Source of the DNA: a virus
Lineage: Duplodnaviria; Caudoviricetes
Length of the DNA: 64,000 nt
IMG/VR virus record: IMGVR_UViG_3300025678_000005
Strand: one strand, 5' to 3'
Shown here piece by piece: positions 1,719 through 62,000 of the stretch. Below the pieces are notes generated by a model. The model worked only from the letters and a program-made list of their open reading frames with translations, was not told the origin of the DNA and made no database searches. The translations under genes were made by a program, and so were the position numbers. Each line of letters starts with the position of its first letter. Within the stretch, counting starts at the first letter, position 1.

Positions 1719-2061
1719 AATTTTATTAAAATAAGCCTAATTGAAGACAGATTAGAATTTAGTTTAATGGTAGATACATTTCATGGTACAGATGAAGAAA
1801 TGTATGTTGCTTTTAGTCAAGTTAGTGAGGCTATAAGAGAACTAAGAAGATTAAGAGATAAATGTGATGAATTAAATAAAAGAATATTTGAATTAGAAAA
1901 CAAAAATTAAAGATTATAGATACGAAAAGAGAGCAAATTATGGAGTTTCTCGAAACATTGCCGACGCCAATTGACGTTTTGAGTCTTGTCGATATCGGTG
2001 ATGTATAAATGGCGTTGCCGACTTTGAAACAAATAATTATCAATTAAAAACGAAGATAGAT

Positions 2062-2328
2062 ATGAAATACAAACTTACAATTACAGACGGATACGGTAAT
2101 GAACATTTATACAATGTTGTGCGCAGTTCTTCTGATGAGCCAAAAAATTTGAATGACTTCATTTTAGAAGCCCTTTCAATTAGTGAAGATAAAAGACAAT
2201 TGCCGTTTTTAATTCAATGCCCTAATGGATTAGAAGTACATCCTTCAATTAAAATGAAGTTTGAAAATTATGGTAGTTCGTTGTTTGGTGATAAACTCGA
2301 AGCAATGATGGTAACGTGGCGTGATTGA
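2062..2328 (+). CDS. Cassette-borne hypothetical protein; start codon lies inside the attC-like site
   Basis: 88 aa ORF crossing the GTT junction at 2116. Confidence 0.7.
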   Translation: MKYKLTITDGYGNEHLYNVVRSSSDEPKNLNDFILEALSISEDKRQLPFLIQCPNGLEVHPSIKMKFENYGSSLFGDKLEAMMVTWRD

Positions 2329-2410
2329 ATTGCGCACAACGTTCCGATTATTTGCGTTCGGTGGGAATTAAAACCACTGAACCTCATTTTAAAAACAAAA
2401 CTTTAATAAT

Positions 2411-2671
2411 ATGCAAAACGATGATTTGAAAAATAACACCCCCACTGACGCAAATAATGTATTAGTGGCTGGGCTTTCTCTCATTCAAGCTAAATATGCC
2501 GCAATGATTGAAAGTAAAAAAATAAGACACTGTTCCTTTATGGATGATGAATATCTCTACTATAAAAATGGTTGTTGGTTCACTCATGATGATTATCAAT
2601 TACCAGATGTGTGTTTTTTAAATGAACAAGAACAAGGGTGGTGGAATAATAGTTGGTCGGTGGTGTCATAG
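2411..2671 (+). CDS. Cassette-borne hypothetical protein; start codon lies inside the attC-like site
   Basis: 86 aa ORF, N-terminus MQND..DANNVL encoded within the palindrome. Confidence 0.7.
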   Translation: MQNDDLKNNTPTDANNVLVAGLSLIQAKYAAMIESKKIRHCSFMDDEYLYYKNGCWFTHDDYQLPDVCFLNEQEQGWWNNSWSVVS

Positions 2672-2694
2672 CCTTGCCACTAACATAAGGAGGT

Positions 2695-2987: not shown

Positions 2988-2989
2988 AT

Positions 2990-3217
2990 ATGAAACCTAT
3001 TGTAAAAAATGTTAAAGTGTCGGCCTATTCTCCAAAGGCCATGTCTATGTTACTACCTTATATTGGAGATATTAAAGGTAGCATTTTTGATCCTCGTGCT
3101 TTTAAACACGAACTTTATTTTATGATAAATAAATATAATTTAGACCCAGTAAAAGATAGTTTTACTATCAATATTTCTGCTGGAAATAAATTGTATACTT
3201 TTCAGTATAAAGATTAG
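2990..3217 (+). CDS. Hypothetical protein, paralog of 2745-2987
   Basis: 75 aa ORF with the shared motifs. Confidence 0.65.
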   Translation: MKPIVKNVKVSAYSPKAMSMLLPYIGDIKGSIFDPRAFKHELYFMINKYNLDPVKDSFTINISAGNKLYTFQYKD

Positions 3218-34308: not shown

Positions 34309-35966
34309 ATGATGGAAAACGAATCATTTGAAAAAAGATCTCAAATTATATTTGAAAGAAGTGATACAGACAAAATAAATGTAAATGGAGAATTAATTGG
34401 TAAGATAATTGGTTATAGGTTTCATATCTTAATAAGAGATAAAGCACCATTAGATGGAATTTTAAGTAGAGAAGATGTAGAACTGATTTATGAACTTTAT
34501 TCTTCTGAAGGTGCAAATTTAACTCAAAGAGAAGTTGCAAGATATTTTCCAAAATATACTTTTCAAGAATTTAAAAGAATATTAAGAGCTTTTAATATAA
34601 CAAAAGCATGTTCTCCAATAGCGCCACATCAATTTGAAGAAAGAGATGTTGAAGATTTAATTACAATTACTTTACAAAATAAAGAAAATAATTATCTTCG
34701 TAGAATAGAACATGAGAGAAATAGGTTAATAGAAGCAAAGTTTAAAGAAACTTTAAAGAAATATGATGACCTTAGAAAAGAAGTTGAAGATTTTAAATGT
34801 TTTTTATCAGATATAAATATTGAATTTGATTTAAAAATCCCAATAGCACATCCAGATAATCCAACAGACAATACTTTATTAGTATATTTAAGTGATATGC
34901 ATATAGGAGCTGATGTTTCAAAATATTCTATTTATAGTAATGAATATAATGAAAAGGTTGTTATGCATAGAATGGAACAAGTTATAAATAGAATATATGA
35001 ATTGGCTATTAAATTTAAATGCAGTAATATAATTGTATGTAATTTAGGAGATTCCCTGGATGGATATAATGCTGAAACAACTCGTGGTGGACATATATTA
35101 CCACAAAATATGGATAATAAGGATCAATTTAAAAACTTTCTTCAAGTTATGATTGAATTATTTTCTTCTTTATCTACTTGTGGAATATTTCAATCAATTC
35201 AATATGTTGTTGTAGATGGCGGAAATCATAAAAATATTATTAAATTTAATAATATTAATTGTGCTCTTGAAAAGAAATTTTCAAGTGAAACAGAGTTAAT
35301 TGCTGGAAAGCCTGAAATGGTAATCAGCAGCCAAGCTTAAACAGAAATGTTTTTGAAGGTTCAACGACTATCCCTGAAATGGGAGTACACTGTAAGTACA
35401 GTGGAAATGCTCTGCCCTTAACATGTAAAGATGAAGGTGAAGATATAGTCTGTTCTTATACGAATAGTAAGTATAAGCTGTAAATAAAATTACGAATATA
35501 GAGTAACGACCTATATTGAACACAAAAGGACGGTGACGTGGGATATATTGCCAATAAAGCATTAATTGCAAGTCTGGAAGTTTTAAATCCACAAATTAAA
35601 TCTATCATATTTGATAAATTTATTGATTTCTTTACTGTAAATAAACATACATTTATTTTATGCCATGGCAAAGATGCTGTTGATATGTTTAAAAATATGC
35701 CTTTAACATTGAATGTTAAAACAGAAAATCAAATTAATGAATTTATTGATTATAACCAATTATCTGGAAACATTCATTTTATTAAAGGTGATTTACATCA
35801 AAGCGCAACAACATATGGACGTAGATTTAGATACAAATCTGTAGGTTCTTTCTTTGGATCCAGTGCATGGATGCATAAAAATTTCGGTTTAACGCTGCCA
35901 TCTGTAGATTTTGATATTTTAAAAGATGATACAATATTTGAAACAAAATTAATATTATATCCGTGA
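34309..35966 (+). CDS. Metallophosphoesterase-domain protein split by a group I intron (exons 34309-35229 and 35529-35966; 452 aa)
   Basis: SDMHIG, LGDSLDG, GNH|D restored by splicing, CHG, GDLH. Confidence 0.88.
35230..35528 (+). ncRNA. Group I intron, no ORF
   Basis: AATTGCTGGAAA, AATCAGCAG, GTTCAACGACTA, AAGATATAGTCT; exon ends in U, intron ends in G. Confidence 0.92.
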
Positions 35967-35969
35967 TTT

Positions 35970-36731
35970 ATGGAAATTTCAATTAATGAATTATTAAAAG
36001 GAAAGCCGACTGTTATTAAAAACAAAGAATTTTTATCAACAAAAGAATATGTCGAGCCTTTTATAGATAAAATGTCTGCTTATACAGATAAATTTATAAT
36101 AACTGTGCAGACACCAGATCAGTTAACATTATCTCAGGGATTAACAGATATTACTTATAATAGAGTCTTAATTCAAGCAGTACTACCAGACAAATATTGT
36201 ATTGATGAACATGATGAAGTTATTGGATTTTTATATGGTATAGACACTAAATTACCTGTAGCAAAAATTTATAGAGGATACTTAAATAGAGCATGTACAA
36301 ATTTAACTGTTTTTAATCCAGAATGGATAGATATACAAGAAATAATACCAGAATCTCCTTTGAATTATACAGCTATTAAACGTTTAAAAGAGGCAGATAA
36401 TGATCTTGCTTTAAGGATAAAACAGTTAAAAGATACCCATTTAGACAGATCAAAAAGAACTGATTATTTGGGAAAATGGGTTGATAAGACTATTAGAGAA
36501 TCTATTAGTTATGGATTTGGTTATGTAAAATTACCTGTAACAGCACCAATTGATGCTTATAAACAGCTGTTTATAGACAGAGAAAGTCCATATTATGTAG
36601 AAGAAACTGTAGATCCAACAATGTATACAGTTTATAATAGTTTTACAAACATTATTAAAGATGATTCAAAAGATCTATTAAATAAATTTGAAAAAACTGT
36701 TATAGTAGATAAAATATTAAATTTAGTTTAA
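35970..36731 (+). CDS. DUF932-like protein
   Basis: RACTN motif, 253 aa. Confidence 0.55.
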   Translation: MEISINELLKGKPTVIKNKEFLSTKEYVEPFIDKMSAYTDKFIITVQTPDQLTLSQGLTDITYNRVLIQAVLPDKYCIDEHDEVIGFLYGIDTKLPVAKIYRGYLNRACTNLTVFNPEWIDIQEIIPESPLNYTAIKRLKEADNDLALRIKQLKDTHLDRSKRTDYLGKWVDKTIRESISYGFGYVKLPVTAPIDAYKQLFIDRESPYYVEETVDPTMYTVYNSFTNIIKDDSKDLLNKFEKTVIVDKILNLV

Positions 36732-39447: not shown

Positions 39448-40284
39448 ATTAAAAATATAAAAATTATTGTTATGTACAAAGATAGAATAATATATGAAGG
39501 ATGGAGAGTTTCTGATTTTATAGCAAATTTAGAACCAACTTTAGATCTTATAATGAGTGGAAGAAGTTATATAAAATGTGAACGTTCAAAAGAATGGATT
39601 AAGAAATGGTGTATGGATAATCAACCAGGCTATAAAAAATATATTCCTGAAGTAGTGAATTATTTTGTAAACAAATATGTTAAAAAATAAATATTATAAA
39701 ACAAAATTTAATAAACAAATTGTTTTTTATTATTGCAATTATAATAATATCTTTACTTATTATCTCTGTATGGACAGAAAATGGTTAATTTGCATTAACA
39801 GCTTTAGTATTGTTGCTTCCATTAACAATTATTACGATGTCATTTCCAAATGAATATTTATTTAATTTTTTTAATAAAAATATAAATGAAGATTTAATAC
39901 AATTAAATGATAAAGTGTATGTAGAATTAACAGATTTTGGAGCAGAAATTGCAAATAAGTTTATGAATCAACTTCCTATAAAACATGAAAAATATATAGC
40001 AGGAAAAGTTTATGAATTTTTATTTTGGGAACTACTTAAAATTTTTGGTGATCAAGTACAGACATACCATTTAAGAATTTAAAGAAGCATTAATCTTAAA
40101 TTATAAATTATGTTAAATGAACAAGATAGTGAACATTATATTGAAGTGGTTTATTGGGAAGATGAATCTGAAATTAATGGAAGTATTGATAGTATTCCTA
40201 GATTTGAAATAATATCAATTAAACAATTATGTTATTATATTTATAAGTTATTAAATACAAATTCAAATATATATTTAGAAATAT

Positions 40285-40863
40285 ATGAAAAAAACTTTAT
40301 TTTTAAATTCTAATTTATTAGATAAATTGGTTTCATGTAATACTTATAATACAATATTAGACCCAGATAATATTAGTATTGAAGAAAATTTGGATTACTT
40401 CTGTACTTCTAATGAAAATTCTTTATATACATTTAACTTTGATAAATATAAAGAAAAAATATTAGAAACTATTTCTGAAATATTACCAAAAAAGATAGAA
40501 CTTTCAGGAATAGAAATTGAGCTTTCATTAGGTAATATATATTCTCCAAATGAATATAATTTTAATAAAGACAATGTTGAAATAATCGTTACATTAGATG
40601 TAGACAAGTTATATGATATTGTTAAAGATGATGAAGCATTTGATAGTTTTTTAAATAAAGAATATAGTTCTTATGATGGTTTTATGTCTTTTAATCCAAA
40701 TTCTTTAAAAGATTGGAATAATGAAAATGATGATGACAGAAAAGCTTCAACTGCAATCAATTATTTATTACAAAAAAATAATTTTCATAAAATTGATGAA
40801 TATGAAATTTATAATTTTATGGAATATGATATAACTGATTTTATCGTAAAAACAGATTTATAA
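40285..40863 (+). CDS. Hypothetical protein
   Basis: SPNEYNF..SYDGFMSF. Confidence 0.65.
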   Translation: MKKTLFLNSNLLDKLVSCNTYNTILDPDNISIEENLDYFCTSNENSLYTFNFDKYKEKILETISEILPKKIELSGIEIELSLGNIYSPNEYNFNKDNVEIIVTLDVDKLYDIVKDDEAFDSFLNKEYSSYDGFMSFNPNSLKDWNNENDDDRKASTAINYLLQKNNFHKIDEYEIYNFMEYDITDFIVKTDL

Positions 40864-41301
40864 AAAACATTAATTTTATGAACAATAATATTTTAAGAGA
40901 TGCAACTTTAATAGATTCACAAAAAGATGTTGATAATATAGAAGATATTTTAAGTTATCAAAATATAAAACAGAAATCATTTATATTATCAGATTATATA
41001 AACTATTGTAGAAATAAACAAAAAGATGTTGGGGAAATAATTATATGTGCAGAACATATGTGTGTTAAAAAATTTAAGAAAAAAACCAAACAGCAGGCTT
41101 TTTGTTGCACTAAACATAGAAAAATATTTTGGTCAAAATTAAATATGTTGTAAAAATTTTAATAGTTTTGTTTATAAAATTTAATTGTAGAAATTATATA
41201 AAAAATTTTTAATATCTTTGTATTAACAGTACTTGTGGAGCATACCATTAGAACTGCCTTCAAGTCATTTTTAAACATATTATAAGTATATTGTAAGCTC
41301 A

Positions 41302-41363
41302 TGGCGCCAAGCATAGACTGGTAGATGCTATTAGTGATCAAGGTTCATCTCCTTGGGGGTCAA
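41302..41363 (+). ncRNA. tRNA-like RNA lacking an anticodon arm
   Basis: Acceptor TGGCGCC/GGGGTCA (one mismatch), D-arm GCAT..TGG..ATGC, T-arm CAAGG-TTCATCT-CCTTG, only 10 nt between D and T arms. Confidence 0.55.
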
Positions 41364-41551
41364 AATTTTAAGAGTAATAGCAATATATTTAACTATTATA
41401 TGTTTTATTCTAAATAATTAAAGATGTGACTTATAAAACAACGTTGAGCGTATGTGCTGTGCAGCCTTGCACGTACTTTCAACATATAAAACAGTTTATT
41501 GGCTGCATAGCATATACGCATTGTTGTGCGTAGTGCTTTAATAATCAAAAA

Positions 41552-41755
41552 ATGGAATATAAAGGTAAAGTTTATGCAAAAATTAACGGCAAATACATTG
41601 AATGTACAGAAACCGTGCAACAATTAGAAGATAAAATATCCAAACTTGAAAGTGCGTTGGATAAAATTGCTAATGGCACACAACCATACAATGAAAGAGA
41701 GGCTTTTATATTTGTTGATATTGCGAGACAAATAGCGAGCGATGCTATTTCTTAG
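41552..41755 (+). CDS. Cassette-borne hypothetical protein
   Basis: 67 aa ORF filling the cassette. Confidence 0.7.
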   Translation: MEYKGKVYAKINGKYIECTETVQQLEDKISKLESALDKIANGTQPYNEREAFIFVDIARQIASDAIS

Positions 41756-41906
41756 TATTACGCACAACGGCTACTTGTAAGAATAGTAGCCGTGAAAAAC
41801 GCAGGAAAGTTTGATTGAAACACAATAGTTTAATAACCGATGATAGCTCTAAAAAGACCACATAACAGGCTATTATTTTTACAAATTGTTATGTGGCGTT
41901 ATTATT

Positions 41907-42065
41907 ATGGGAACTTATGCAATATGGTATAGACCCGTGTGGGGGCAAATGACAAGGTATGTTGAGTATGTAAAAGCAAACAATGCCAGACAGGCAGAAA
42001 TAAAATTCTATGCTACAAGTGCGGGGGACAATTGCCAAAGCATTATATTAATAGAGAGGTGTTAA
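41907..42065 (+). CDS. Cassette-borne small protein (52 aa, MGTYAIWYRP..LIERC)
   Basis: Read manually; stop abuts TGCCACATAAC. Confidence 0.65.
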   Translation: MGTYAIWYRPVWGQMTRYVEYVKANNARQAEIKFYATSAGDNCQSIILIERC

Positions 42066-42533
42066 TGCCACATAACAATTATATTGGTATTATATATCTT
42101 CCTATGATAACTTAACAGAAGAATTTATTGAAAAATATCAAGATAGAATATATTGGCCATCTATTGCAAAATATCAAGTTTTATCAGAAGACTTTATTAG
42201 AAAATATAAAGACAGATTAGACTGGATTTATATTTCTACTTTTCAGATCTTATCTGAGTCATTTATAAGAGAGTTTAAAGATTATGTAGATTGGATATGT
42301 ATTAGTGAAAATCAAAAGTTTTCTGAAGAATTTATATGTGAATTTAAAGATAAAGTATATTGGAAGGCTATATATAGTTTCGGATTACCTGCAAGCACTA
42401 AAGAAGAAATAGAATAATAAAAATTTAATACTTAAAGTAAAAATAGATTATAAAGATGTAGGAAGAGTGAATTATAATAATGGGGACATAAGATGTTTTA
42501 AATTTACTATTTTAGAATAATTAATAAATTAAA

Positions 42534-44259
42534 ATGAAAAAGATTAGAAAAAACATTTTTGAAACTAATAGTAGTAGTACTCATTCTGTTGTTATAAAAG
42601 AAGGAGAGTTTAAAAATTTTCCAAAAAATATTAATTCTTTAAATATAACTACAGATGATTATGGATGGGAAAAGCATACTTATACTGATTTTACAGATAA
42701 AGCTTCCTATGCTTTAACTTATGCAATTAATTATGGTACTAAAAAAGATTTGAAAATGCTTGATAAAATATTAAAAGAGCAGTTGAATATTAAAGATATA
42801 AAATATGATGGCCTTACATTAAAACAAGCATTGAACTATGTTGGAAAAGATTCTAGAAAATTTGGATATATAGATCATCAGAGTGTAGAAGAAGCAAGTA
42901 AAATATTTAAAGATGAAAATAATTTAAAAAGTTTCTTATTTTCAAAAGATTCATAAAATTCGGCTCAAGGAAACCCCGAAGTCTTTAGCTTCTGGGAGGA
43001 ATTGAGCCACTATTCCTTCTTTTGTTGAATTTAACATAATTATTTCTTTCAAATATTTGAATATCTCAAAACTATTTTGTATCTTTGTGGTATGAAATTG
43101 ACCTTGCAGATTAAGCTGCTTCCAACTGTCGAACAAGCCGTGATGCTGAAAAATACGTTCAGCGTTTTTAACGAGGCTTGCAACACTATCTCGCAGATAG
43201 CGTGGGAACGCCATGCGTTCAAGCAGTTCAGTCTGCACAAGGAAGTGTATTATCCCATCAAGGAAACATATCATCTCTCTTCCCAGCTTGTCGTGCGTGC
43301 AATCAGTAAAGTTGCCGATGCGTACAAGCTCGACAGGAAGAAGCAGAGGCACTTTAGGGAGTTCGGGGCTATCACCTACGACAGCCGTGTGCTTTCCTAC
43401 AGCATGTCCAAGTCCGTCTGTTCCATCTCGCTTGTCGGAAGCCGTGAGAAGATAGCATATACCTGCTACCGTCCGCAGCTCATGCAGTATGCAAAAGGGG
43501 AAGCCGACCTCGTTCTTATCAAAGGAAAGTTCTACCTCTACCAAACGATAGATATTCCCGATGAGCATGAGGAGAACGCAGAGGACTTTATCGGTGTCGA
43601 TATGGGCATTACGGACATTGTATCCGTCTCTGACGGCACTAACATTTCCTCTGATGAGGTCAAGAACATACGAAACAGATACAACAAAGTGAGAGCTTCT
43701 GTCCAGTCTAAAGGCACTCGCAACTGTCATAAGTTGCTGAAACGGTTGAAAGGACGTGAGAGAAGATTCGCCACCATTGTGAACCACCGCATCAGCAAGC
43801 AACTCGTAGCAAAGGCAAAGGAAGAGAACAAGGGTATCGCCATTGAGGACTTGAAGAACATCCGATGGGGCATGAACTCCAAGAAACGCAGCAGGACGTT
43901 CCGCAGGAGGAGTAACTCGTGGAACTTCTACCAGCTCCGTTCCTTTATTGAATACAAGTGCAAGGTGGCTGGCATCAAGATTGTCGCCATTCCGCCTGCC
44001 TACACATCGCAGACCTGTCATGAGTGCGGACACATAGGTATTCGCAACGGCAAGCACTTTCACTGCACGCACTGTGGCAATGTAGCAGACGCAGACGTAA
44101 ACGCTGCTCTGAACATCGCCACATGGGGGTATGTAAACACCCATGAAAGATGGGATTTGTTGTCGTGTCCTATACATGATGATTTTTCTACGTCTAAAGC
44201 CCACAAGTCTTTAGCTTGTGGGTAGTTTACATTTTAAAACTGATAATGATAATATGTAA
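42534..44259 (+). CDS. FETNSSSTHS-motif protein 1, interrupted near its C-terminus by an IS
   Basis: IS removal restores ..FSKDS-YFKTDNDNM*; also carries GYIDHQS. Confidence 0.75.
43056..43087 (+). promoter_or_regulatory. Bacteroidota-type promoter of tnpB
   Basis: TTTG-N20-TATCTTTG. Confidence 0.6.
43092..44225 (+). CDS. tnpB: RNA-guided endonuclease TnpB
   Basis: RuvC GVDMG, IEDL, DADVNAA; zinc finger CHEC..CTHC. Confidence 0.93.
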   Translation: MKLTLQIKLLPTVEQAVMLKNTFSVFNEACNTISQIAWERHAFKQFSLHKEVYYPIKETYHLSSQLVVRAISKVADAYKLDRKKQRHFREFGAITYDSRVLSYSMSKSVCSISLVGSREKIAYTCYRPQLMQYAKGEADLVLIKGKFYLYQTIDIPDEHEENAEDFIGVDMGITDIVSVSDGTNISSDEVKNIRNRYNKVRASVQSKGTRNCHKLLKRLKGRERRFATIVNHRISKQLVAKAKEENKGIAIEDLKNIRWGMNSKKRSRTFRRRSNSWNFYQLRSFIEYKCKVAGIKIVAIPPAYTSQTCHECGHIGIRNGKHFHCTHCGNVADADVNAALNIATWGYVNTHERWDLLSCPIHDDFSTSKAHKSLACG

Positions 44260-44538
44260 ACGAAAAAAATTAGAATTGGATTATTTGAAACTAATAGCAG
44301 CAGTACGCATTCTATTATTATATGTACTGATGAAGAATTAGATAAATGGAAAAAGGGAGAGATTTTACGTGGATATTATGAAGGCTTTGTACCTTATTCT
44401 GAGGATTTGGATAAAGATGAATATTTTACATATGATGAATATATAAAATATAGAGAAGAAGAAGTTTATGAAAATAAATATATTACTAAAAATGGAGAAG
44501 TTTTACATATAATTTGTAAATATGGATATGATGGATAA
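44260..44538 (+). CDS. FETNSSSTHS-motif protein 2 (ACG at the start position)
   Basis: Unlisted 92-codon frame KKIRIGLFETNSSSTHSIII..CKYGYDG. Confidence 0.7.
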   Translation, partial: TKKIRIGLFETNSSSTHSIIICTDEELDKWKKGEILRGYYEGFVPYSEDLDKDEYFTYDEYIKYREEEVYENKYITKNGEVLHIICKYGYDG

Positions 44539-45424
44539 TATATTATATAAATATAATAATGGTAATACTACAGTTACTATTTATGATGATGGCACAAAGA
44601 TAAGGGAGTATGAAGATACTCCCTGTGTCATTTTTCCAGAATCAATAGATTTAAAAATAACTAATTCATGTAATATGAATTGTGCTTTTTGTCATGAATC
44701 ATCTACTAAAGATGGGGCACATGCAAATATTGATAAACTTAAACAAACATTAAATGATCTTCCCGCTGGAATTGAAATAGCTATAGGCGGTGGAAATATA
44801 TTTGAATATCCAGATTTAATAGAATTTTTAACTTGGTGTAAATATAAAGGATTTATTTGTAACATTACAATTAATCAAAAACATTTAAAGAAAAATCTTT
44901 CACAATTAAAATATTTAATTGAAGAAGATCTAGTTAAAGGAATAGGTGTATCTATTAATGGTAATGATTTCAATTCATTAAAAGAATTAAAATCTAAGAG
45001 CAAACATGTTGTTTATCATTTAATTGCAGGGATTCATAAACCAGATATTTTGGATAAATTAAATAAATTAGGTAATTGTAAAGTATTAATACTTGGCTAT
45101 AAACAATTTGGAAGAGGTATAAACTATTATTCTGATGAAGTAATAAAAAATATAAATGAATGGAAAATAAAATTACCAGCATATTTTGGAAAATTTCTAA
45201 TTGCTTTTGATAATTTAGCTTTAAAGCAATTAGATGTAAAATCTATGCTTCCAGAAAAAGTTTGGGATAGTTGTTTTATGGGAGAAGATTTTACTTTTAC
45301 AATGTATGTAGATGGCGTAAAAGAACAATATGCGCCTACAAGTAGTAGTAGCAATAGAACATCTTTTAGTGAAATGACTCTATTAGATTATTTCGTAAAA
45401 CATAAAAATAAAATATCATTTTAA
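44531..45424 (+). CDS. Radical SAM protein
   Basis: CNMNCAFC motif, IAIGGG. Confidence 0.9.
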   Translation: MDNILYKYNNGNTTVTIYDDGTKIREYEDTPCVIFPESIDLKITNSCNMNCAFCHESSTKDGAHANIDKLKQTLNDLPAGIEIAIGGGNIFEYPDLIEFLTWCKYKGFICNITINQKHLKKNLSQLKYLIEEDLVKGIGVSINGNDFNSLKELKSKSKHVVYHLIAGIHKPDILDKLNKLGNCKVLILGYKQFGRGINYYSDEVIKNINEWKIKLPAYFGKFLIAFDNLALKQLDVKSMLPEKVWDSCFMGEDFTFTMYVDGVKEQYAPTSSSSNRTSFSEMTLLDYFVKHKNKISF

Positions 45425-45739
45425 AATAAGATAGGCATAAGAATTTTAAATAATTCAATAAATAATAATTAATTTATGACAAAAGTCTTTGAATATAAAG
45501 GATTAAGATTTATAGAAGTTGCTCCAAATATCTTTCATAGTGTCGATTTTGGAGATAAACTTATTTATGAATATAAAGAGAATAAATATTATTTAATTAA
45601 AGATGAAAGAATAAGCGAAGTAATATCTTTGGAAGAATGTAATGGGAATCCTAATAGTATCTTTAATAATGATTATTGGTGGAAATAACTTACATAATAG
45701 AGCAAATAATAATATAACAATTATATTTTTTAAATAATA

Positions 45740-48140: not shown

Positions 48141-51100
48141 CCATAGGATTTGGTACTAATTCCATAAAGTTCAAATTTGATCTAATAAAACTTTCAACTG
48201 ATCCGTTTCCAGAAAAAACATCCTTAACAGAATCTATAGTATCTGATAAAGTACTTATAAATACTGGAGTTGTTTGTATATCTCCTAATAGAGAAAATGG
48301 ATTAAATTCCTTTGTCGATCTCATTAAGATTTTACAAGCCATTCTTTCGTATTGATCCATCTGACTATAGTTTGTTTTTCCAGTAATTAAATCTTTATTT
48401 TTAAATATTAAAATACCAAGTAATATATTAATTAACATTATAATTAAATCATGTAACATTAATTTCGCATTATTAAGTCTATGTGGTTCTATTTCTTTTA
48501 ATGATTTTCCAGTAGCAAGCTCCCTTATTGTTATACCAAAAGAATACATTAATCCTTCAAAAGGATCTCCAACTCATTCTCAATCTGGTGAATAAGCATC
48601 TCCAGGTTTTAATTCTGTTTCTGGTATTTCAAGTCTATATTCTTGTCCATTTTCATCTGTTTCATACTTTACATAATATAGTACTTTTTTACCATTTACC
48701 ATTTTAAACTTCTGTTGCATATGGCCTCTTTTTGTTTTTGTAGGTTTACCAAAATAATATCTTATCTTGGCTGGCCAGAAAGTCATAAATTGACCAAAAA
48801 ATATACCAAGTGGTAAATGCTTTATAAGAGGACTTCTATCATAGTCATAATATCCATACGCCAATTCTGTAAAAGTTTTTATACTTTCTCTTTCAAGATT
48901 CATATATGGTTCTGAAATTAGATCTTCTTCTTTATATGTTTTATCGTTTTTAAAAATAGCTTGTTTATTAAAATAATCAATATAAGTTTTGTATAATGCT
49001 CTTTGTGTATTATATTTTTTATCAGTTGGATGATCTTTCATTCCATATTTTTTTCTCATTTGAAAATAATATGAAAATCTTTCATCCTTTGTTACATCAT
49101 AAACTAAATTACCATCTTTATCTAAAGAATATGCTTGGTAAACACCATCTTTTATTAATTTTGAAAGAAATAATGCTAATCTATTGATATAGTCTGGAGC
49201 TGTATTACTCCAATACATAAAATCACTAATGAAATTTAATCCTCTTCTATCTATCTTTGTTTTATCAACTATCTGATTCATATCTCTATTTGCAATTCTA
49301 AAATAATTATTTAACTCATTAACTAAAGCATAATCCTTTTTTGATAATAATAATTTATAGGCCTGTGTTAAATATCTTCCAGAAAAACTATCATCACCAT
49401 ATACTTTTGATCAGGCATAAGAAGTATTCTTTATAGTACCAACTACTAATTCTTTAATTGCCATGGCTGGTCTTATAGCTAAAACCATAAAACTTACTCC
49501 TTTTTGCAATAGCCTTATATAGCTAAATAAATCTTCATATTCTTTTCCTTTTATTGGAGACACATTATATATTGATACTTTAATCTGTTCCATTGTAGTG
49601 TTTAATAATTTTTCAACTTCTTCAATATGACCAGTTTGATACCCATAAAATCGCAAATTTTGCATTGCTGCATTAATATATGGAAGTACTTCATTAAAAT
49701 ATTTTTCTTTAATAGATTCAAATATATATTTTAATAAAATAGTATCTAAGTTAATTTCTCAATGTCCAACACTATATCTTGTTAATAGATAATCCCTAAA
49801 TTCTTTATCTTCCTGACTTTTGAATCTATTGTAAATTTTCTTTAGGCCATTTATAGCATTCATTGAACCAATATATTGTAATTCTTTTTCTGCTTCTTCA
49901 GGAGTTTCTTGTTTTATATCCAATATATTTAATGCATTTTCTTTAATATTTCCAACCATTTTTCTAAATCCATCTGTAGTCAAAGTTTTTAATTCACTTA
50001 AATTCATTCTTGGAATAAGAGGAATTTTTAATAAATTTTCAATTTCTCCAGAAGCAAGCATTTGTTTTAGTTCTTCTGATTTTTCAAACTTTTCAAATGT
50101 ATCTAATTCTTGATTTGAGCCATCTCTATATAAATAAAACAGATGTATATATTGTTTTAAATATTTTCTTTGTTCTGGAGTTAAAGCTGTTTCTTTTGAT
50201 CATGGATTTTTTAACTTAAATTCTGAATCCAATTTATTACCGTCATGTTCATAAAATGGACTGTAGAATCTATCTGCATCACCAATAAACGTTTTTTCAA
50301 GCCAGGGTCTTCCCATTTCTTTATACATTGCATTTGTTAAATTAATAACTTTATTTTTTTCTTTTAAATAAATACTACTAATTTTATCCTGAGTAAGATT
50401 TCTAACATCGTATATTTGGTTCAAATATTCTGATTGAACAGCATCAGTTGTTGCAAGTTTCATTCCCTGGAACATTCCAACTGTAGGAATTTTTATATTT
50501 GTATCTTTTACTTCTCCAAATAATCAGCTTTTTAACATGTGTGTAAAATCACCTTTTGTCATACCATACTCATTTACGCCAGTTTCAAACTCTCCATTGA
50601 TTCCTATAAAATGAGATATTCCTCCACTTACTAATGCATATAGATAAACAATAGGATCGCTAAAATCAGTAATTTTAGTTGGATCTATTTTATTCAAATG
50701 GCCATATGTTTCTAAAAGTTTATCACTTAGTTGAGTTAATAATTTTATTTTTTCATTATTTGTTGATGGATTGTCAAATTGCTCCATACTAAAATAAGCA
50801 TTTAATGCATCATTATTTATAGTTCTTAATGCATCTAATATTTCTTGATATAATATTTCCATATAATCTGCTACTTTAATTTTTTTATTAGCAAAATTAT
50901 TTTCTATATTTATATCATCCTTTATTTCTTTTAGAAGCAAATCGAAATTATAAAAGGCATTTTCCAAATTATTAGATCAGTCTGGTGTTCCAGAGGAAAT
51001 ATCCAATACTTTTATATTTCCAAGTTTATATCCATATAACACATCTGGCATAGCATTTAATACAGTCAAAGTTTTTAAAATTTCTATATGTGAACTTGTA

Positions 51101-52989
51101 GCGTTTCATATTTTTGGATCTCTATTTAAATCTGAATCTCTATAAAATTTACCAAGTACTTTAGTTCCAAGACCAAGATTGTTAATTTGTCTTAAATTAT
51201 TAATTGTTAATGTTACAACTTCTACCTGTAATGTCTTATTATTGCGAAAAACAAGTGTGCCATTTGCTAATAAAGCAGGTCTATTTGTAATTAATTCTCA
51301 ATCTCCACTTAAGTATTTTTGAAAAGTAGTATTTAGACCATCATAAATAAGTCCTTTTATATTTAATTTTCCAGTTTTTTTTCCTTTATTTATTTCTTTA
51401 ATTATATCCTGTACAGCTGTATCTTTTTTAGCATTTAATAATTCTACGTATTCGGCAACTCTTTTTCTAAATCTTTCTACGCCTTCTTCGGTGTTGGGCT
51501 CTTCAATATATTCACCAGTTAATCTATTCAAAAGTTTAATTGTTTGTCTTCCTTCGGCCCTATGTTTAGCTTTTGTTATTAAAAATTCTATATCTTCTAT
51601 TTTACGTTTTGTCCTGAAATTATAAGTAGGAAACATTGCAGATAATGTTTTTTGTATATTACTTATTATTACAGTACTTTCTTCTGGGTTATCTTTAACT
51701 TTTACAGGAATTAATTTTCTAAGCGTTTGTGTGACAATTCCATTTTCATCAAGGCCAGATGGTTTATATGCATAAGAAGAACTTCTTTCATTTACCTCTC
51801 CAATATAAAATTTATCTGCCATTATCAATCCATCTCTATTTACTGGAAAAATTGCTGGTAATATGTATAATGATATAAGTTGTGGATTAATTTCTGGTGG
51901 CAGCAAATCCTCTAGTAATCTCCTTGATATACCAAGTTTATAGTCAGTTCTTAGAATTTTTGCTGAGTCTCAATCTGTAATATTATTTCTAGAAACTCTT
52001 ACATCATAAATGCTGGGAATTCCATCACTGTTTATAGATAAGTAAGAGATTGGAGATGATATTCCTGTTGCATTTTCTATAGGTAATTGTCTATTTAACC
52101 AAACATCTGCTTCAAATTTTTCAGTAGAATTTAAAACAGTTTGTTTATATCATTTTTGTATCTGTTCTTTTATATTTTGTGATATATTTACTTTTTCTTT
52201 TTCTGTAAAACTAAAGTCATGTTTTATTAATTTATTATAATTCTCTACAGTTTTTATAATTTTTTCTATAGAATTATCAATAGAAAATTTAGGATTCTTT
52301 TTTATATAATTTTGTAAAATATCATTAACTATTATTTGTAAAGACACCATTATATTTGAAGTCTTTAATTCCAGGTCTACTTCTTCTGTTGCCCTTCTAA
52401 GCGCTTCTTCTGGATCAGACTCATTTAAATCCTTATATTTTGTATTAAGTAAATCATTTATAGCTTCTTTCTTATAGTTTTCATCATTAAAAACAGGAGC
52501 AAGTAATTTTGGATTTTCACCATCTATTATATGTTCCATTTTTAAAAATTGACTATCAATAATAAAGTTCTTACTATATGGTACATTATTTTTCTTAATT
52601 TCTTCTCATACTCTATCCTGTATAGAATTTTCTTTAATATCAAATTTCAAGACAGTATGTTTTTTATTTTCCAATCATTCTTTAAACTGTTTAATATCTT
52701 CTTCTGATCCCAATATATATTTATTAAATGGTGTATATGAAATACCTTCATTAATATCATGTTCTTTTGGATCTAAATTAGGAAATTTGCTGTCTATAAA
52801 ATCAATATATTGTTCAAGTGTTCCAATACCTTTTATTTTTTCATCGTATATAGGTAATATATAATCATTTATAACATTTCCAGGTATTGAATGTATATAA
52901 TGAGCCTTTATAAAATCAGAAAGTTCTTTATCAGATTCATAAGTAAATTCATTATTTCCATCTTTTAAAAAATATTTGCATTTATCCAT
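48130..52989 (-). CDS. Giant virion/cargo protein, 1619 aa with TGA=Trp
   Basis: Nine listed ORF fragments share one frame and are broken by TGA; ends in TAA. Confidence 0.82.
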
Positions 52990-52990
52990 A

Positions 52991-55900
52991 TTAGTAATTA
53001 CATTTTTGTTCTAATTTTTTTTCATCTATTAGTTTTTGTATAATGTCTGCTACAGTAAACATTTCATAAGAACTATTAAAATCTATTAATGATTCTTCTC
53101 CATCAATCAATTTTGAACCAAAATTGGTTAATACATCATAAATAGAAGTTTTCATTAATCCATTTACATCTTCTCAGTCCAGGTTCTCTTCAAGGTTTAA
53201 CATATCAGAAATTGTATCTTTAATTGTAGTGTTAAAACCGTCATCTGAAAATACTCCATCACTTTTAATATTTTTATTAAAAGTTAATGTAAATAATTTA
53301 ATAAAGCTTTCTTCTAAAGCTTCGGCATTAATCATATTGCCAGCAACTTCTTTGAATATTGGATGATATTGTACAGAATTAATGATTCTATAATACATAT
53401 CAGAATTTCTAGCTTTCATTGTAGCCAAAATAACATGGAGTAGTTCATGGAGAGGGTCTGTTATTCTAGCTTTATCAAGATTAATGTATATTTCATCAAA
53501 AGTAGTAAAAGAAGATGCTTGATATACCTTTGGATTATTAAATCTTTCAAGATCGCTATTCTTTATTAAGTTTATTTTTATATTAAATTTTTCAGATAAA
53601 TAATTACTAAAGTTTACAAGAAACTCATAACTACTAGATTTAACATTTATTTTAGTTTCTTCTTTTTCAATATTATTTTTATATTTAGATATAAATTCAT
53701 AAGTATTTATTGCCCATTTTGGAGTAAAAATTCCTTTAATATTTAAATCTGTATATTCATCTAATATAACAGTTTCTCCTTTTACATATCTAAATTCACC
53801 ATTTCCATTTGGTATTTTAGTATACGAATATTTTGTTGCCACTAAAGCATTTTTTAAAATTTTTTCTACAACTAGAACATTCTTACCTAAAGAAATAAAA
53901 CTTCCAGGAATTATTTTATATAGTTCATTTGAGCGCAACATTTTAATAAAATTCTCTTTAGACATTTCAACAAAATTAGTATTTAAAGAATCTTTTTTAT
54001 AATAATTATTTGTTGCTATAGCATATAATTTGTCTGGTATATTTTCTCATTTATATCTATCCTGCATTAATTTTTTATATTCCTGTGTAATATCTTTATA
54101 TCCTTTTTCTGCTATATTAGATTCAATTGGATTAACGTTTGCTGGTAAAATAAATATGAAATTATTTGGATTTTTATATACTTTTACTTCTACATAAGAT
54201 TTACTTTGTACTTGTGGTTCTCTAAATACTTCTATTCTTGATTTTTGAATGCTTAAATTAGCAAAAGACTCATTAAGTCTTTTTGTAAATAGAATATAAT
54301 TATGTAATGAATTTCTATCTATATTAAAATATCTAAATGTGTTATCACTCATTTTTACAACTGTCTTTATGTAAAAATGTTTTATACCATTTATCAAATT
54401 ATATCCAGAACCAATAACTTTATATAGCAATTTAGTTTCTGGATTATACAATATGTCATCAGACAATATTGTAGAATAGTTATTTAAGTCTGATACATTA
54501 AATGTTAAATTATTTAACCTATCATAATCTTTTTCTAAAATAGATTGTACAGACTTATTATTTTTTAGAATATTGTTTATATAATAAGATATATTAATTA
54601 AATCATCATTGTTTATAATATTCTGGTTTGTATTTCTTGGTATTTCTGTTCCAACAATATTATATTGACTGGTAACTCCAAGCTTGTAACCTTCGTCGTC
54701 TTTATATATATATAAGAATTTATTTGTAACAAACTCATTTCCAATAATTAATCCTATGAATTTAGAATTTCCTATTGATATAAGTGCACGTTCTCCAATT
54801 GTTGGAGTCTTATAATTCATATCTATATTTTCTTCTAATAATTCTAAATTTGGTACTGGTAACTTTATATTCTTGATTTCATCTATTCTTAAGGATTTAT
54901 TATTATCTAATACAATTATAGAACCTCTAATTTCTTTAATTTTATAATCTTTATGATCCAAAGTTACAAGAATATTATTATTTTTTAACAAATTCAATAT
55001 ATGTTTATATGAAACAGATTTGAAGTGTTTATGTAATGAAATTGGTATTTTTTCAGATTTAGTATATGAATAATTATTATATATTTCATCTGTATATACC
55101 ATAGCTTCTACTGAATTACTATTTGTATTAATAGATAATTTATTGTCTATAGTATAAATATATTCTGAAGCAATTCTATTACGTAAAAATAAATTTCCTG
55201 TTTGTGTATTTTGTCCCAATGTTCTTATAATATATTTTCCATCAGAATCAATATAACTATCATAGAATAATTCGTATCAATCAGTTGCATTTGGATTTGA
55301 AATTTTATCAGGATTTGGTATTAATACAAGATCTCCCTGCTTTAAATCAAGTATATTTATTCTTGATTTTGGTAAATGTTTTGAAAGACGTTCTTCATTA
55401 TCTATATATTTAAATTTATTTCAAGTATCGTGTAAAGACAGCCTTTCAGTATTAATACTTCTATCCTCATTTATTGATTTAACTACACTGCGATAATAAG
55501 CAGTATAGATTATTTTTTTTAAATCATTGGTTTTTTCTTCATCCTTTGTTTTAATAATTGATTCCAAATACTTATCGGCCATTAATTTATCTTCCTCTTT
55601 TTCTGAATTTACAAGCTCTCTAAAATTTATTTCTCCGAAAGCATTATATAACGCCAATTCAACCAATGCAATGATATTGTTATCTGTACTGTTCATATAA
55701 TTTAAATTGAAAAATATATGACCTTTATAGAATGAAGTTGGGACGTTCTCTTCTCCAAAACCAGCAATAACATTATTTGTTTTTCAATCAACACCGATAT
55801 TTAAAAGTCGTAATAATCCAGATTCTCTTGGAGATAATTGTTTTACAAGTTCACCTGGACTATATACTCCTACAGTGTTTTCATTTATATCATTTAAATT

Positions 55901-56083
55901 TAAGTCTTGTATATTATCAAAATCTAATAACTTATTTTTTAATTCATTATAAGCAGCTAAATTAGAACTGTCTATATTTTTTTTCAATTCAAAAATTAAA
56001 TCTTCTAAAGAGTTAATTTCATTCTGTGTAGAAAACAATTCTACTTGCTTTCCTTCTAGATTAACCGTATACTTGCAATCCAT
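52991..56083 (-). CDS. Giant virion/cargo protein with zincin motif, 1030 aa with TGA=Trp
   Basis: Four in-frame fragments; HELLH. Confidence 0.82.
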
Positions 56084-59000
56084 TATTTACATTCTTTACT
56101 AATTACTAATTTTTTATTTTTAATTTGCTGAACAATTTCATCAGCTAAATTTTGTGATTGTTTATTAACTGTTATTTCATGTGAAACTTCATAAGGAAAA
56201 GTATAATATCTATTCATTTGTAATGTTTCATTTTCAGTTACATTTAATTTTTTTGGTTTATTTTTATCATAAATATCAACATCACCAAAAACATATAATA
56301 GAAATCCTTTTAAATTATTATTATTTTCAGATAAATCTTTTACTAAAATATCAACATCTTCGTGTGTTATAGAAGATTCAAAATTAAGAAATTTTCTTGA
56401 AATAGAATTTGGATCATCAGCATCTTTATAAAATAATTCTGTAGCTCTATTTCCACCAAATCTTCCTTCATTTATAATTAAATTATATGCAGTTAATAAA
56501 TCTATTAACTTAATTCCAGCATTTAATTTAGAATCACCATCTTGTACAGTATTTATATTTAAAATATAATCTGTATTTATATATTCTCCAGAAGCTGGAT
56601 CTCATTCTTTAGAAAATCCCCTACCAATCATCTCACTTATACCTGCCTCGAGATCTTCCAATTCATCATAATTAGATTCATCTAAATAATAAGATATTTT
56701 TTTATTTAAGTTATAATTTAAATATGATGTCTTTACAAATCTCTTTAAAAATCCATTATTAGCGTGTTTTTTCTTTTCAAAAGGTATTATATATTCTTCC
56801 ATTATATATTTAAATTTTGCTAATTCATATGGACTATTTAAAGAAAAATACCTTATTGGAGAATTTTCTAAATCTTTTTTAGTAAAAGTATCTACAGAAA
56901 TTTCATCTTGACTGTCTTTTAATATTCTAATATTATCTATACCCAAATAATTCATTAATGCTATCAAATCAAATTTATAATCCAGAGTATTAAAAAATTT
57001 ATAAATAACTCAATTATCATAATAATCGTTTATTTTATTCAGTATTCCTGAACTGTATGTAACTGGATTATTCTGCACTCCATTAAGTATTATATGTTTG
57101 GTTATTTTATAATATAATTCGTTTTGCGGATAAATATCCAATATTTTTTCAATTATCTTTTTACTGTTATTTATTGAATTAAAATAATGTTTATTTGTTT
57201 TTGAGGTAATAACAGTATCAACAGTATGAAAAGATTTAAACATGCTATTAAAATGCTTTAAAGAAGATAGTACATCTAATATATTAAATGTAGATTTTAT
57301 AAGATTGTAATAATCAATAGCTATTTTTCTATAATTATCATCATTAAAAAATAAATCCAAATCTAATTCTTTTTCTACTATATTAATATTTTTAGCTTTG
57401 TCATATATTTCTTCAATAAGCACTTCATTTAATCAAGGTTTATCTTTCTTAATAGTTTCTAAATCACTTAAATCATTAAAATATTTTCTTTTCAACATTT
57501 TTCTTTGATTGACCAACGAAAATCTTAAATTATTCAATAATTCATAAAGACTTTCTTCATTAGCTTTAGATCCTTGATTAACACTTAAAAAAGAGCCAAG
57601 AGTAATTAATTCTTGAGAGTCCATAAATATATTGAAGAAATTGACAAAGAAATTACTTCTATATTCATTTATAGGAAGAGCTTTTATATTCTTGTCAATA
57701 GAAGCCCTGATCATATTGATTCTGGAAACGGGTCTACCATTTGTAATAAAAATGTTGTTTTCTGTTTTTCTTTTTAATTCCATAGCCTCTGGAGATGTCA
57801 TAAACTTTGTAACTTCATCTGGCGAAACTCCCAACATGAGTAAATAAATATGCATTCCAGCAAATTCAATTCCAGCATTTATTTTTGCTAATAAAAGCTC
57901 TTTTGCATTATCAGTAGCAAGTGTTAAAATGGCCGATATATAAAAAGCTATATCATTATCTAATGGAAATTTTTCCATAGATGATATTATATAATCAATA
58001 TATTCTGAATTACTCATATATTCAGAAAGTATTGTATCTTTAGAAATGCTTTCTAAAGAAGTCCTAATATTTTGTACTAAAATTTCATCTAGTTTGTCTT
58101 GAATGTTTTTATAATTATTTAATCCAGCAATTTTATTAAAGCAATATTCTTTTCCATTAATTACATAATGTTTGAAGAAATATTTACTACTATTTACATC
58201 TATATTATCAACATTCATATAATAGTTTCCAAAATATTTTACAAGTGCAAAATAATTTTTTAATCCTACAGCTGCAATACCAATAACAGCTTTACCTACT
58301 GTGTTTTGTTCTTGTTGCAAGCCCATAGTATATCCATTATAAACATCAAGATTATATGGTGAGTCAGAATAATTCTTTTTTATTTCTCCATAAACTCCAG
58401 ATGTTACTGGTATATTAGATGCAACTTGTGTTGTAGGACTTTCAAGAACACCTATCATTTTGTTTACAATATAGTTTTTAAATCCATTCTCGTTATAATA
58501 AGATTCGTGCCTATTAATAGCTTTTAATAAATAATCATCTTCTGAATATATATATTTATATTCATTTTTATTTAATTCATTTGTAATTGCTATAAATTTA
58601 TCCAGAAAACTGCTATCGTTTATTCCATTACTTTCTAAAAAAGAATTTATATTAAATACATCATTAGAAAAATTTATACCATTGTCATCAGTAATTAAAA
58701 CATCTTTGTATTTTGTTAGATTTTTTTCATTTAATAAAATATATTTTCTGTTTTTTGGAAGTGGAATATTAATTGATTCATCAAATTTAGTTGTATCAAA
58801 ATATGGAGACCATGCTTCAAATTGACCATTTTTAAATGAGTATCCCATTGTGTATACTTTATCAATGTCAAGATCTGATCCCTGTAGAAATAGTTGTCAG
58901 ATAGATACATATATATCATTTGCTGATCCAGGAATAAATCCTACCGTTTCCATAGACATAACTGATTGTAGTGCTTGAGCTGGAATTCTAGCTACAACAG

Positions 59001-62000
59001 ATTTTAAAGATTGCTTAAAACTTTTATATTTTATATTTGCCAGCCTTTTTGAATATTTAAATGTTTCTGTTTTTTGTTTTGTTTTAAGAAATTCTTCATA
59101 TAAATCAATTACATTCTTTTTAGTTATTTGTCCAGTATTATACTTATCTATAATATCCTTTTTAAATTCTTTATAATTTTTTATTTTTTTTCTAAAAAAG
59201 CTTTCTAATTCTTGATTATTTACAGAATTTGCTATTGTTGTTAATAATGTCAAATAATCATCATCCACCAAATCTAATAATTTATCTACGGTATTATATC
59301 CTTTATCCTTTGTATAAATATAATTCAAATTATTATGGCTTTCTAAAAAGCTATCAATACCTTCTTTAATATATAAAATTTCATTGCCTTTAGTATCTAA
59401 GAACACTTTATAGGAAGCTGGTAATTTATACATTTTATGTCCAAAAGAATCTATTCTATAATTACCATCATCACTTATATAAATTTGAATTTCTTCTGCT
59501 ATTGGAGAATACTTTGCAATTTCTGCATCCAAAGAAGTATTATTATTTTCAGCATCTCTTTTTGCAAGTTCCATTACCGTTTTTAAATATAATTTATTTT
59601 TATATTCAATATAATTAAAATCTTCTAAAGAGACATAATAGTCTTCTCCGTTTACACCAACTAAAACTAAATCTGCTGGAACTGGTAATAATGGATGAAG
59701 ATATTTCTTTGGCAATAAAAAGTCTGAGATGTTTATTTTATTTAGATTGGTATCTTTCTTAATTCCAAATGTGTCATATTCACCATAAGATCTAATATTT
59801 TCTGGTGCATAATATTTATAATCTGTAATACTATTAGTATTAATATAATTATTTTCAAATTTTCCTGTAAAATCATCAAAGCCATCTACGGTTTTAAAAA
59901 TAGTATTAAAATAATTATCATTCGTTTCTTGATAAGATATATAGTTCTTATTATATGATAATAACTCAAAAGTTCTTTGTATTCATTTATCAACATATGG
60001 CAAAATATTTACACTCCCTGTAATATTTTGAATATATTTAACAAAATCATTATACATTTTGCTTGTTTTAAAAGTATTATCATTTAAAAGTCTCCATTTG
60101 AATTCTATTGCATCACAATCTCAAATACTCCTTTGAATTCCATTTTCTACGAATGTAACATCAGATGGTTTTAAATCTCTTGGCTGATTATATATCTTAT
60201 TTATAATAATATCAGAATTATTTAAAGATTTTATTAAACCTTTAATTTGAAAATAATCATTTATTTCATTTAATCTAATAGGAGTATTGGCTGGTATTAA
60301 ATTACCGTTTAATGTTATATCTATATTTAATGAAATTACATCCAGGGGTCTTATACTTGAAATATTTATATTTGTAGGCTGTAAACTTGGAAGAGTAGAT
60401 AATACATAATCTATCTTTGCATTATTTATATCATGTAAATTATCTAATGTATTAACTTGTGGTTTTACAGATAATTCATCATATATACGAATTAAATCAG
60501 TATTTAAATATTTATTTCCATCTCTATCTTCATATAACTGTACAAATCCTTGTGAAGGTCTTAACACATAACCAGCTCCTGGAAATTTTCTTCTAACAAA
60601 TTCTGCATTAACCTCAGAAATTAAAAAGCTTATAAATTGTTTATATATTGTTTTATTATCAAACGGTATAATATGCTCAAAATCATTTTCTAATGCATTA
60701 ACAATTGTCCTAGCATTATTAATTTGGGATGAATTATTCAATCTTTTTATAAATAATTTTGTAATAATTTCAAAATCCTTATCACTATTTAATCTAATAT
60801 TAAATTTTTCAAGTCCACGTTCGGTAACTGTAGAAATAGCATCATATACAGCATCTGACAGTTCGGGAACTAGATTCATTTCAGATAATGCTGATATAAC
60901 TTGTGTAATTTCATTTACTTCAGAATCTTCTACTGTATGATAAGGATCTAGCTGTGTTCCAAAAAACGAAGTATCGAATATAAAATAATTTAAGGGTTTA
61001 TCAGAAGAAAACACATCTTTTACTGTATTTATATTTGTGGCACCATATTTTATTGCGCTTTTTGGAACCAGCATTGTAATTAAACTTTCTTTAAGAGTGT
61101 TATTTTTATTATAAATAGCATGTTTACTTACAATTGAGGCCACTAAATTAATAGAAGATTCATCATATTTAATTTGATTGTTTTCCATAGTTGCAGAATA
61201 TTCTCCACCAAATGCTTTCCATAAATCAAATAGATTATTGATTTCTACTTGTTTTTCATCTCCACCTTCAAAATATATAGTATAAATATTATCCTTTAAA
61301 AGTTTTATATTTAAAAATTTTTGCATCTTACCATTGTGTCATAAATATAGATTTGGTACAATAGCTTGTAAATCTATTGGACTATAAGAATCAGAATCGC
61401 CAAGATCTTTAAAACTAAATAGATCAAAATAACCATCTTTTCATAGATACTCACTATTTAATTTTTTCATAATATTATATAGTTCTACATCTTTTCTATT
61501 ACTATTTCTTATATCATTATTACTTATTGCAAATGTTGCAAATTTTAGTAATCCAGAAAAAGATTCACTTATTATTTGGGCAATTGGTTTTTGTGAACTC
61601 TGTAAATTGTATCCTGGTAGTGAAACTTTAAGTAATTCATTAAATATTGGATTTACCAAAGCTCCCCCATTATAAACTTCTATTTTAGTTTGATCACCAG
61701 TATAGTTAAATACTGTAGTTTCTGGATCAGACATAACAGCTATTTTATGTTTTTGTAAAATTCCTTCTGGACTTTTCCCATATATACTCATTGATGCACC
61801 AAAAATGTTCATTCTTTTGGTCATTGTTGTTGTACGTTTATTGTTTTCTCTGGTTAATACAGATTCTATACTATCTCATTTATTATTTACTGGGGTAAAC
61901 AGTTTTTCATATGGATGTATGTATGAATCTTTTGTTGAAATATTTAAGTACTGAGATGTTACAAGATTTTTTGTTCACAAATATGTTTTAACAATATCTG

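Follow-up and report, generated by a model that had tools for sequence, protein, structure and literature searches.

The segment at positions 41442-42075 of this phage genome is probably made of two mobile cassettes of an integron-like system that is shared by the chromosomes of Flavobacteriaceae (and probably of Bacteroidota more widely) and by their phages, with the recombinase supplied in trans. Integrons are the textbook device for gene capture, and are thought to depend on the integrase IntI and to be almost missing from Bacteroidota. Here, the logic of the integron would operate with another recombinase family and another family of sites, in most of the Flavobacteriaceae genomes sampled, and the system would reach into phages, with all genes mirrored. 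The DNA analysed is a stretch of 64,000 nt (the window) of the IMG/VR record IMGVR_UViG_3300025678_000005, which is 138,532 nt long with an overall GC content of 26.7%.

The 634-nt insert stands out from the AT-rich DNA around it, with a GC content of 33-36% against ~22% in the flanks on the GC profile. It consists of two units, in each of which a small gene follows a structured site, and the ends of the units (GTT..AAC) are complementary (Table 1). The initial annotation had described two units with complementary ends and a long imperfect palindrome, and both pairs of ends as well as the first palindrome were located. The ends of cassette Z pair between 41523-41537 and 41754-41768 (GTTGTGCGTAGTGCT and AGTATTACGCACAAC), and those of cassette X between 41884-41901 and 42063-42080, with 94% complementarity over 18 nt. 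The palindrome of site 1 is 89% complementary and forms a stem of 19 bp, in which positions 7 and 12 are G.T wobbles, and a loop of 34 nt. Folded as single-stranded DNA, the plus strand of this site reaches -19.2 kcal/mol (z = -4.25), a value equalled by none of 200 shuffles, and the minus strand has a z of -2.93. Gene 1 has 35 homologues, none of which carries a Pfam domain, and it matches phrog_2990 weakly, while gene 2 has no match in Pfam or PHROG.

Table 1 Features of the cassette locus and of the second array of the same phage (positions in the window), followed by the cassette content of related contigs.
Feature	Position	Strand	Description
Trp-repeat gene, 5' stub	41424..41441	+	ATG TGA CTT ATA AAA CAA, M W L I K Q under code 4
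Site 1 (cassette Z)	41440..41525	+	AAC, spacer GTTGA, stem 41448-41466/41501-41519, loop, ATT, GTT
Cassette Z	41442..41767	+	Site 1, arm, gene 1, arm; crossover taken between AA and C
Gene 1	41552..41755	+	ORF of 67 aa
Site 2 (cassette X)	41766..41890	+	AAC, spacer GGCTAC, stem 41775-41791/41868-41884, loop of ~76 nt, ATT, GTT
Cassette X	41768..42075	+	Site 2, arm, gene 2, arm
Gene 2	41907..42065	+	ORF of 52 aa
Trp-repeat gene, start-less body	42076..42417	+	Four 69-nt repeats (repeat family D1), Trp-ending; phrog_3532
Second cassette array	1994..2684	+	Sites 1994-2118 and 2338-2463
Gene of cassette W	2411-2671	+	Within the second array; cassette W is 2338-2684
Contig L029			Left flank and cassette Z identical as far as the contig reaches (ends at 41768)
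Contig L025			Z'-X; gene modules and right junction as in the window; other site element and other cassette at the left
Contigs L024, L026			Flanks 98% identical; Z, then cassette W
Contig L027			W, Z, then ..CGCACAAC abutting AATTATATTGG
Contigs L028, L030			Junction of CGCACAAC and AATTATATTGG as in L027; 41769-42070 missing exactly
Contigs L034, L036			Unrelated neighbours; cassette Z at 97.6% identity; homology confined to 41440-41770

With regard to the second site, the complementary ends of the initial annotation are real, but the short hairpin CCACATAAC..GTTATGTGG is not the functional stem. Covariation favours the long-range stem, and the local hairpin GGCTACT..AGTAGCC was therefore dropped as the key stem of this site. 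A point against the integron-like reading is that the minimum-energy fold of site 2 prefers local hairpins. Separately, an internal copy of CCACATAAC in site 2 is complementary to the next arm, GTTATGTGG (41858-41896); this pairing covaries in three variants from other phages and is uncoupled in the related locus L023. A double-stranded site of the pdif/Xer type was rejected, as the spacing of 40-120 nt between AAC and GTT is far too long.

The cassettes lie within a gene made of repeats that end in tryptophan. Its frame is open over 42076-42417 and holds no ATG, GTG or TTG start, in agreement with the initial annotation. Joining position 41441 to position 42076 gives ATG TGA CTT ATA AAA CAA/CAA TTA TAT TGG, and the rejoined ORF, MWLIKQ/QLYWYYISS..., has 119 aa under code 4. 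At the junction, KQ/QLYW restores the K-x-x-x-x-W end of a repeat, comparable to the repeat ends KDRLDW, QDRIYW, and KDKVYW. The deletion had been said to rejoin an in-frame ATG to the Trp-repeat gene: the frame does join, but a TGA follows the ATG, and the claim needs a sense TGA. In this phage, TGA is indeed read as a sense codon, in a code 4-like manner and assuming Trp. The minus-strand late genes are chains of ORFs in the same frame that are broken solely by TGA (48580-63735 on the minus strand of the window, and also 35520-36731), which supports a sense TGA independently.

The insertion reading has a point against it in the length of the phrog_3532 profile, which counts 292 positions compared to the 119 aa of the rejoined ORF. 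Moreover, a fully empty allele, with an intact Trp-repeat gene, was to be sought in relatives, and none was found by searches with the flanks and the junction string or among the variant contigs. The exact string of the empty allele, CTTATAAAACAACAATTATATTGG, and the right flank have no match in metagenome contigs; L013 and L016 alone match the right flank among viral contigs. The left flank has no match in viral contigs, and a search with the 192-aa protein encoded upstream gave no relatives. In the scenario that we propose, one event would have inserted an array at the sixth codon of the Trp-repeat gene, thereby splitting it, and later site-by-site recombination would have reshuffled the array. 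Upstream of the interrupted gene, the stretch 41220-41370 is non-coding, has a GC content of 30-33% and is 98% conserved in L024; no tRNA, Rfam family or ORF accounts for it.

The whole 138.5-kb record encodes no tyrosine recombinase, serine recombinase or Y1 transposase, with zero matches to PF00589 and to PF01797, so that the phage is indeed devoid of an integrase, as had been suggested. Likewise, no Rfam family was found over 40000-45500 and no tRNA within the window. With two sites 326 nt apart in a record without recombinase, the locus corresponds to a CALIN, which is defined by at least two neighbouring attC-type sites without an integrase close by, the sites being non-canonical here.

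A TnpB element (IS605-type OrfB, PF07282 and PF01385) of 1275 nt and ~50% GC is present at 42956-44230. Its insertion shortens a gene of 149 aa to 140 aa (42534-42956), and the element is missing, with its flanks abutting, in L024, L027, L028 and L030.

The position of the TnpB element, 0.9 kb from the cassettes, is compatible with the units being hairpin-dependent single-stranded DNA transposons that a Y1 HUH enzyme moves by peel and paste, like IS200/IS605, and that insert 3' of AAC and end with AAC. The units do insert after AAC and end with AAC, and their hairpin is subterminal. Nevertheless, we consider this explanation extremely unlikely. The phage has no Y1 transposase, and the units do not qualify as members of this group; the arrays go with tyrosine recombinases, not with HUH enzymes, and the TnpB element is a separate insertion, with its ~50% GC and its own empty alleles.

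The integron-like reading is first supported by the sites themselves. On the coding strand, the sites of the family comprise an arm ending with AAC, 5-6 unpaired nt, a stem of 17-19 bp, a loop of ~10-80 nt, ~3 nt (usually ATT), and GTT followed by the other arm. The stem sequences are wholly different between sites and yet still complementary. In an alignment of 13 sites, 92.2% of the cells are paired, versus 70.6 +/- 2.0 after shuffling (none of 500 shuffles reached the observed value), and compensatory changes are found at 14 of the 17 stem pairs (slid controls, 36-47%). The stem positions that deviate from Watson-Crick pairing consist of 19 G.T and no A.C on the coding strand; they are positions 7 and 12, where the 5' arm carries the G, and the arms exhibit a fixed G.T at position 11. 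The attC plan is present, with inverse AAC/GTT cores, an unpaired spacer, an L stem, a variable terminal part and strand asymmetry. No conserved L-box bulges were seen; the stems exhibit the fixed G.T at positions 7 and 12, which is a C.A mismatch on the other strand. The source of the strand asymmetry is these G.T wobbles together with the unequal spacers (5-6 versus 3 nt), not bulged bases.

The boundaries of the cassettes are also as in integrons: the first bases of a cassette are complementary to its own site, the arms measure 13-18 nt, and the breakpoints fall at AAC. Scanning for GTT-arm..arm-AAC units revealed arrays of small genes with complementary ends of 13-18 nt, with a maximum of seven per locus. 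The stretch 41762-41903, which covers site 2, shares 77% identity with an element found between genes in Cellulophaga phage phi19:3, and a 24-nt motif taken from it retrieves ten IMG/VR contigs. Where the end of the neighbouring cassette is recognisable in these loci, conservation starts right after AAC.

A covariance model of the site, R1, gave 65 matches across 25 related loci, always on a single strand per locus. Site 1 was outside the training set and is nevertheless matched with an E of 2.7e-7. Over the 138.5-kb phage, R1 matches four sites alone, all on the plus strand and in two arrays, namely sites 1 and 2 and those of the second array (E = 1.5e-10 and 4.6e-6), where the cassette ends lie at 2116/2340. 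The first site of the second array begins with ATC and not AAC, its second site ends with ATT and not GTT, and the start codons of both genes are inside the loops of the sites. Beyond phages, R1 matches were found in 105 of 121 Flavobacteriaceae genomes, where they are clustered in arrays and number up to at least 29 per genome, compared with only 3 of 41 MAGs from one archaeal order, in which they lie on small contigs.

The comparison of near-identical phage contigs revealed three cassette orders, Z-X (the window), Z-W, and W-Z. Samples containing this phage include JGI 3300038674, 3300045924, 3300010351, 3300010357 and 3300009682, and ENA ERZ27257462. Cassette X is precisely absent from L027, L028 and L030 and is swapped for W in L024. 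At the Trp-gene junction of L013, W is 86% identical to the copy at 2483-2685 of the window, and the match ends at AAC. Copies of gene 1 are identical or 96% identical on many contigs, and new junctions share AAC alone with the new flank. This natural gain, loss and reordering of cassettes, in which the breakpoints coincide exactly with AAC, corroborates the proposal of integron-type cassettes in the initial annotation. As judged from these alignments, cassettes have apparently been lost or replaced, have changed order and have passed from one phage to another. The fact that near-identical phages differ in cassette order suggests that the shuffling is ongoing despite the phage having no recombinase.

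A second type of breakpoint is also observed. From 41522 rightwards, L025 matches the window at 100% identity. On the left side of GTTGTGCG, L025, L035, L037 and L038 have another site element, which places the breakpoint between the site and GTT. A breakpoint at this end of the site is not predicted by a single crossover point, and it fits none of the models neatly. The gene 1 module with a different upstream site element is located at 297-420 in L025, 1888-2012 in L035, and 279-402 in L038.

In phages, the ORFs lie on the strand of the site in 29 of 30 intervals, with the site 5' of its own gene on the coding strand. In chromosomes, by contrast, 30 of 35 intervals have long ORFs that run antisense to the site, and the canonical order is found, with the site 3' of the gene. 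The inversion of the phage genes relative to the usual arrangement, which had been claimed at the outset, thus holds in comparison with the host arrays. Since the features of the wobble strand do not depend on the direction of transcription, the fold belongs to one DNA strand and not to the mRNA.

This orientation bears on another explanation, in which the hairpins are regulatory (terminators, processing sites or promoter-stem-loops of the T4 type) and the genes are shuffled by homologous or illegitimate recombination between repeats. The sites are intergenic and sometimes hold the next start codon (position 2063 of the window; L037), and pairing compatible with G.U on the phage coding strand would suit an mRNA structure. 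However, the wobble strand is antisense to the genes in chromosomes, so mRNA folding cannot explain the asymmetry. In addition, AAC is the sole homology at junctions with new flanks (3 nt), a constant link with a recombinase is unexpected for regulatory elements, and no sigma-type promoter motif is evident on inspection; by eye, none of the Bacteroidota motifs (TTTG or TAnnTTTG) in the sites was convincing. We regard the regulatory explanation as improbable.

The link with a recombinase is found in host chromosomes. A Xer-like tyrosine recombinase of 375-405 aa is encoded at the end of the array, with constant geometry, in 7 of the 10 genomes examined (eight recombinase genes), and the arrays lie downstream of it. 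These chromosomal arrays obey the end-complementarity rule of the phage arrays, including the G/A asymmetry at position 11. The site family is common to the phage and to arrays adjoining Xer-like recombinases in Flavobacteriaceae, as in an rAID-1-like class. In L004 and L018, phage arrays adjoin genes for homologous recombinases (27-32% identity). In contrast, gp036 of phi19:3, a recombinase beside the array of this phage, is unrelated to the Xer-like enzymes, indicating that not every array-adjacent recombinase comes from one family. Three of the chromosomal arrays beside a Xer-like recombinase (L057, at G128:C1:75000-94999, L059 and L061) carry large cassettes; these include an ORF of 735 aa resembling a DNA cytosine methyltransferase and may represent defence-type cargo. 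The Xer-like recombinase of L057 has 375 aa and is encoded at 2001-3128 of that locus.

The initial annotation had placed the enzyme in trans, in the host or outside the window, and this agrees with the chromosomes of Flavobacteriaceae, where sites of the same family form arrays adjacent to a dedicated recombinase. Since no recombinase is encoded by the phage itself, either its host or a co-infecting element must provide the enzyme, and we infer the catalysis from these other genomes. The enzyme acting on the phage would most likely be the host Xer-like recombinase, which lacks the IntI insertion, rather than an integron integrase.

The possibility that the sites are canonical attC sites moved by a true integron integrase of the host was also considered. 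The plan of the sites is that of attC (R boxes AAC/GTT, unpaired spacer, L stem, variable loop), and a relative, P12002L_attC1, was called an attC by HattCI, the only program to detect it (PMC9892861). Insertion of cassettes by IntI outside att sites is also known (bioRxiv 10.1101/2022.09.11.507474). Nevertheless, P12002L_attC1, the only member of the present site family with a published assay, was not recombined by IntI1, the single failure among the six sites tried (PMC9892861), and integrons detected by IntegronFinder are almost absent in Bacteroidetes (PMC9024848), yet the site is found in 105 of 121 Flavobacteriaceae genomes. The array-side recombinases are closest to XerA and XerC/D, with a continuous match to XerA, whereas the match to IntI4 (2a3v) is split in two, and all scores are below the TIGR02249 cut-off. 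Only 58 residues separate KDR from HTLRH, which indicates that the IntI-specific insertion is absent. An integron sensu stricto, in which an IntI with this insertion lies beside the array, is therefore not what is found, and we consider the involvement of IntI very unlikely.

Based on these observations, a mechanism can be proposed for the integron-like system. On the coding strand, a cassette consists of C, the site, GTT and its arm, the gene, and the second arm ending with AA, and this strand would fold as single-stranded DNA. The basal R stem would be formed by the AAC:GTT pair and, once the cassette is circularised, would be extended by the complementary arms of the cassette itself. Above it follow the asymmetric unpaired spacer (5-6 versus 3 nt), the stem of 17-19 bp with its fixed G.T, and the variable loop. 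At the base of the R stem, a tyrosine recombinase provided by the host or a co-infecting element would cut between AA and C and exchange strands. Cassettes would then be excised as circles, to be inserted into a further site or into a secondary GTT/AAC target. A further reading, that Bacteroidota phages keep a mirror-image pool of cassettes, with the site upstream of the gene, for a Xer-type integron-like system of their hosts, is in our view about evenly poised between right and wrong.

If this reading is correct, virulent phages without a recombinase could trade small accessory genes in real time by means of an enzyme from the host or from a co-infecting element. This would also represent a second, IntI-independent origin of single-stranded cassette recombination, which links the bacterial and viral gene pools. 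The locus is a natural experiment, with near-identical phages that differ only in cassette content and order, which makes the rate and direction of exchange, as well as the enzyme, directly testable. It also offers a mechanism for the turnover of small accessory genes in phages, for example candidate anti-defence or takeover genes.

Several of these elements have precedents. CALINs in phages, including one site of the present family, and recombinase-associated rAID-1 arrays with integron-like repeats were already known. Specific to this locus are the insertion inside a phage ORF, the recoded phage without recombinase, and the near-identical genomes with different cassette content and order.

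Like classical integrons, the system has folded sites, self-complementary cassette ends, arrays beside a tyrosine recombinase, and a putative crossover between G and TT (between AA and C on the folded strand), and secondary GTT targets also exist in integrons (attG; bioRxiv 10.1101/2022.09.11.507474). In contrast to classical integrons, the recombinase lacks the IntI insertion, a fixed G.T seems to stand in for extrahelical bases, the R stem has a greater length (13-18 bp), and the phage genes are on the folding strand, with the site before the gene.

Virulent phages are known to carry clusters of attC sites without integrase (CALINs; Qi et al. 2023, Front Microbiol, PMC9892861), and these are likewise integrase-less cassette arrays in phage genomes. 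Among them, P12002L_attC1 of the Polaribacter phage NC_028924 has exactly the plan observed here (AAC, GGCTAC, stem, ATT, GTTAGGC), and this genome holds further cassettes and R1 matches of the present site family. That study treated the sites as classical attC and did not include the site family, the host recombinase, the mirrored orientation or the shuffling at population level (PMC9892861).

The rAID-1 clusters of gut Bacteroidales have a XerD-like recombinase at their 5' end, co-directional genes, and integron-like intergenic repeats (Ross et al. 2019; bioRxiv 10.1101/471110). The Flavobacteriaceae arrays share this architecture, as compared with the published description alone (bioRxiv 10.1101/471110). 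The rAID-1 clusters are chromosomal and carry immunity genes, whereas the arrays in phages have a mirrored orientation and contain small genes. Finally, the PeSL cassettes of T4-type phages are also said to be small phage genes that are flanked by repeated stem-loops and shuffled among related phages, and their shuffling reportedly relies on homology between promoter-bearing repeats. In contrast, the junctions described here share 3 nt only, and the sites belong to a family linked to a recombinase.
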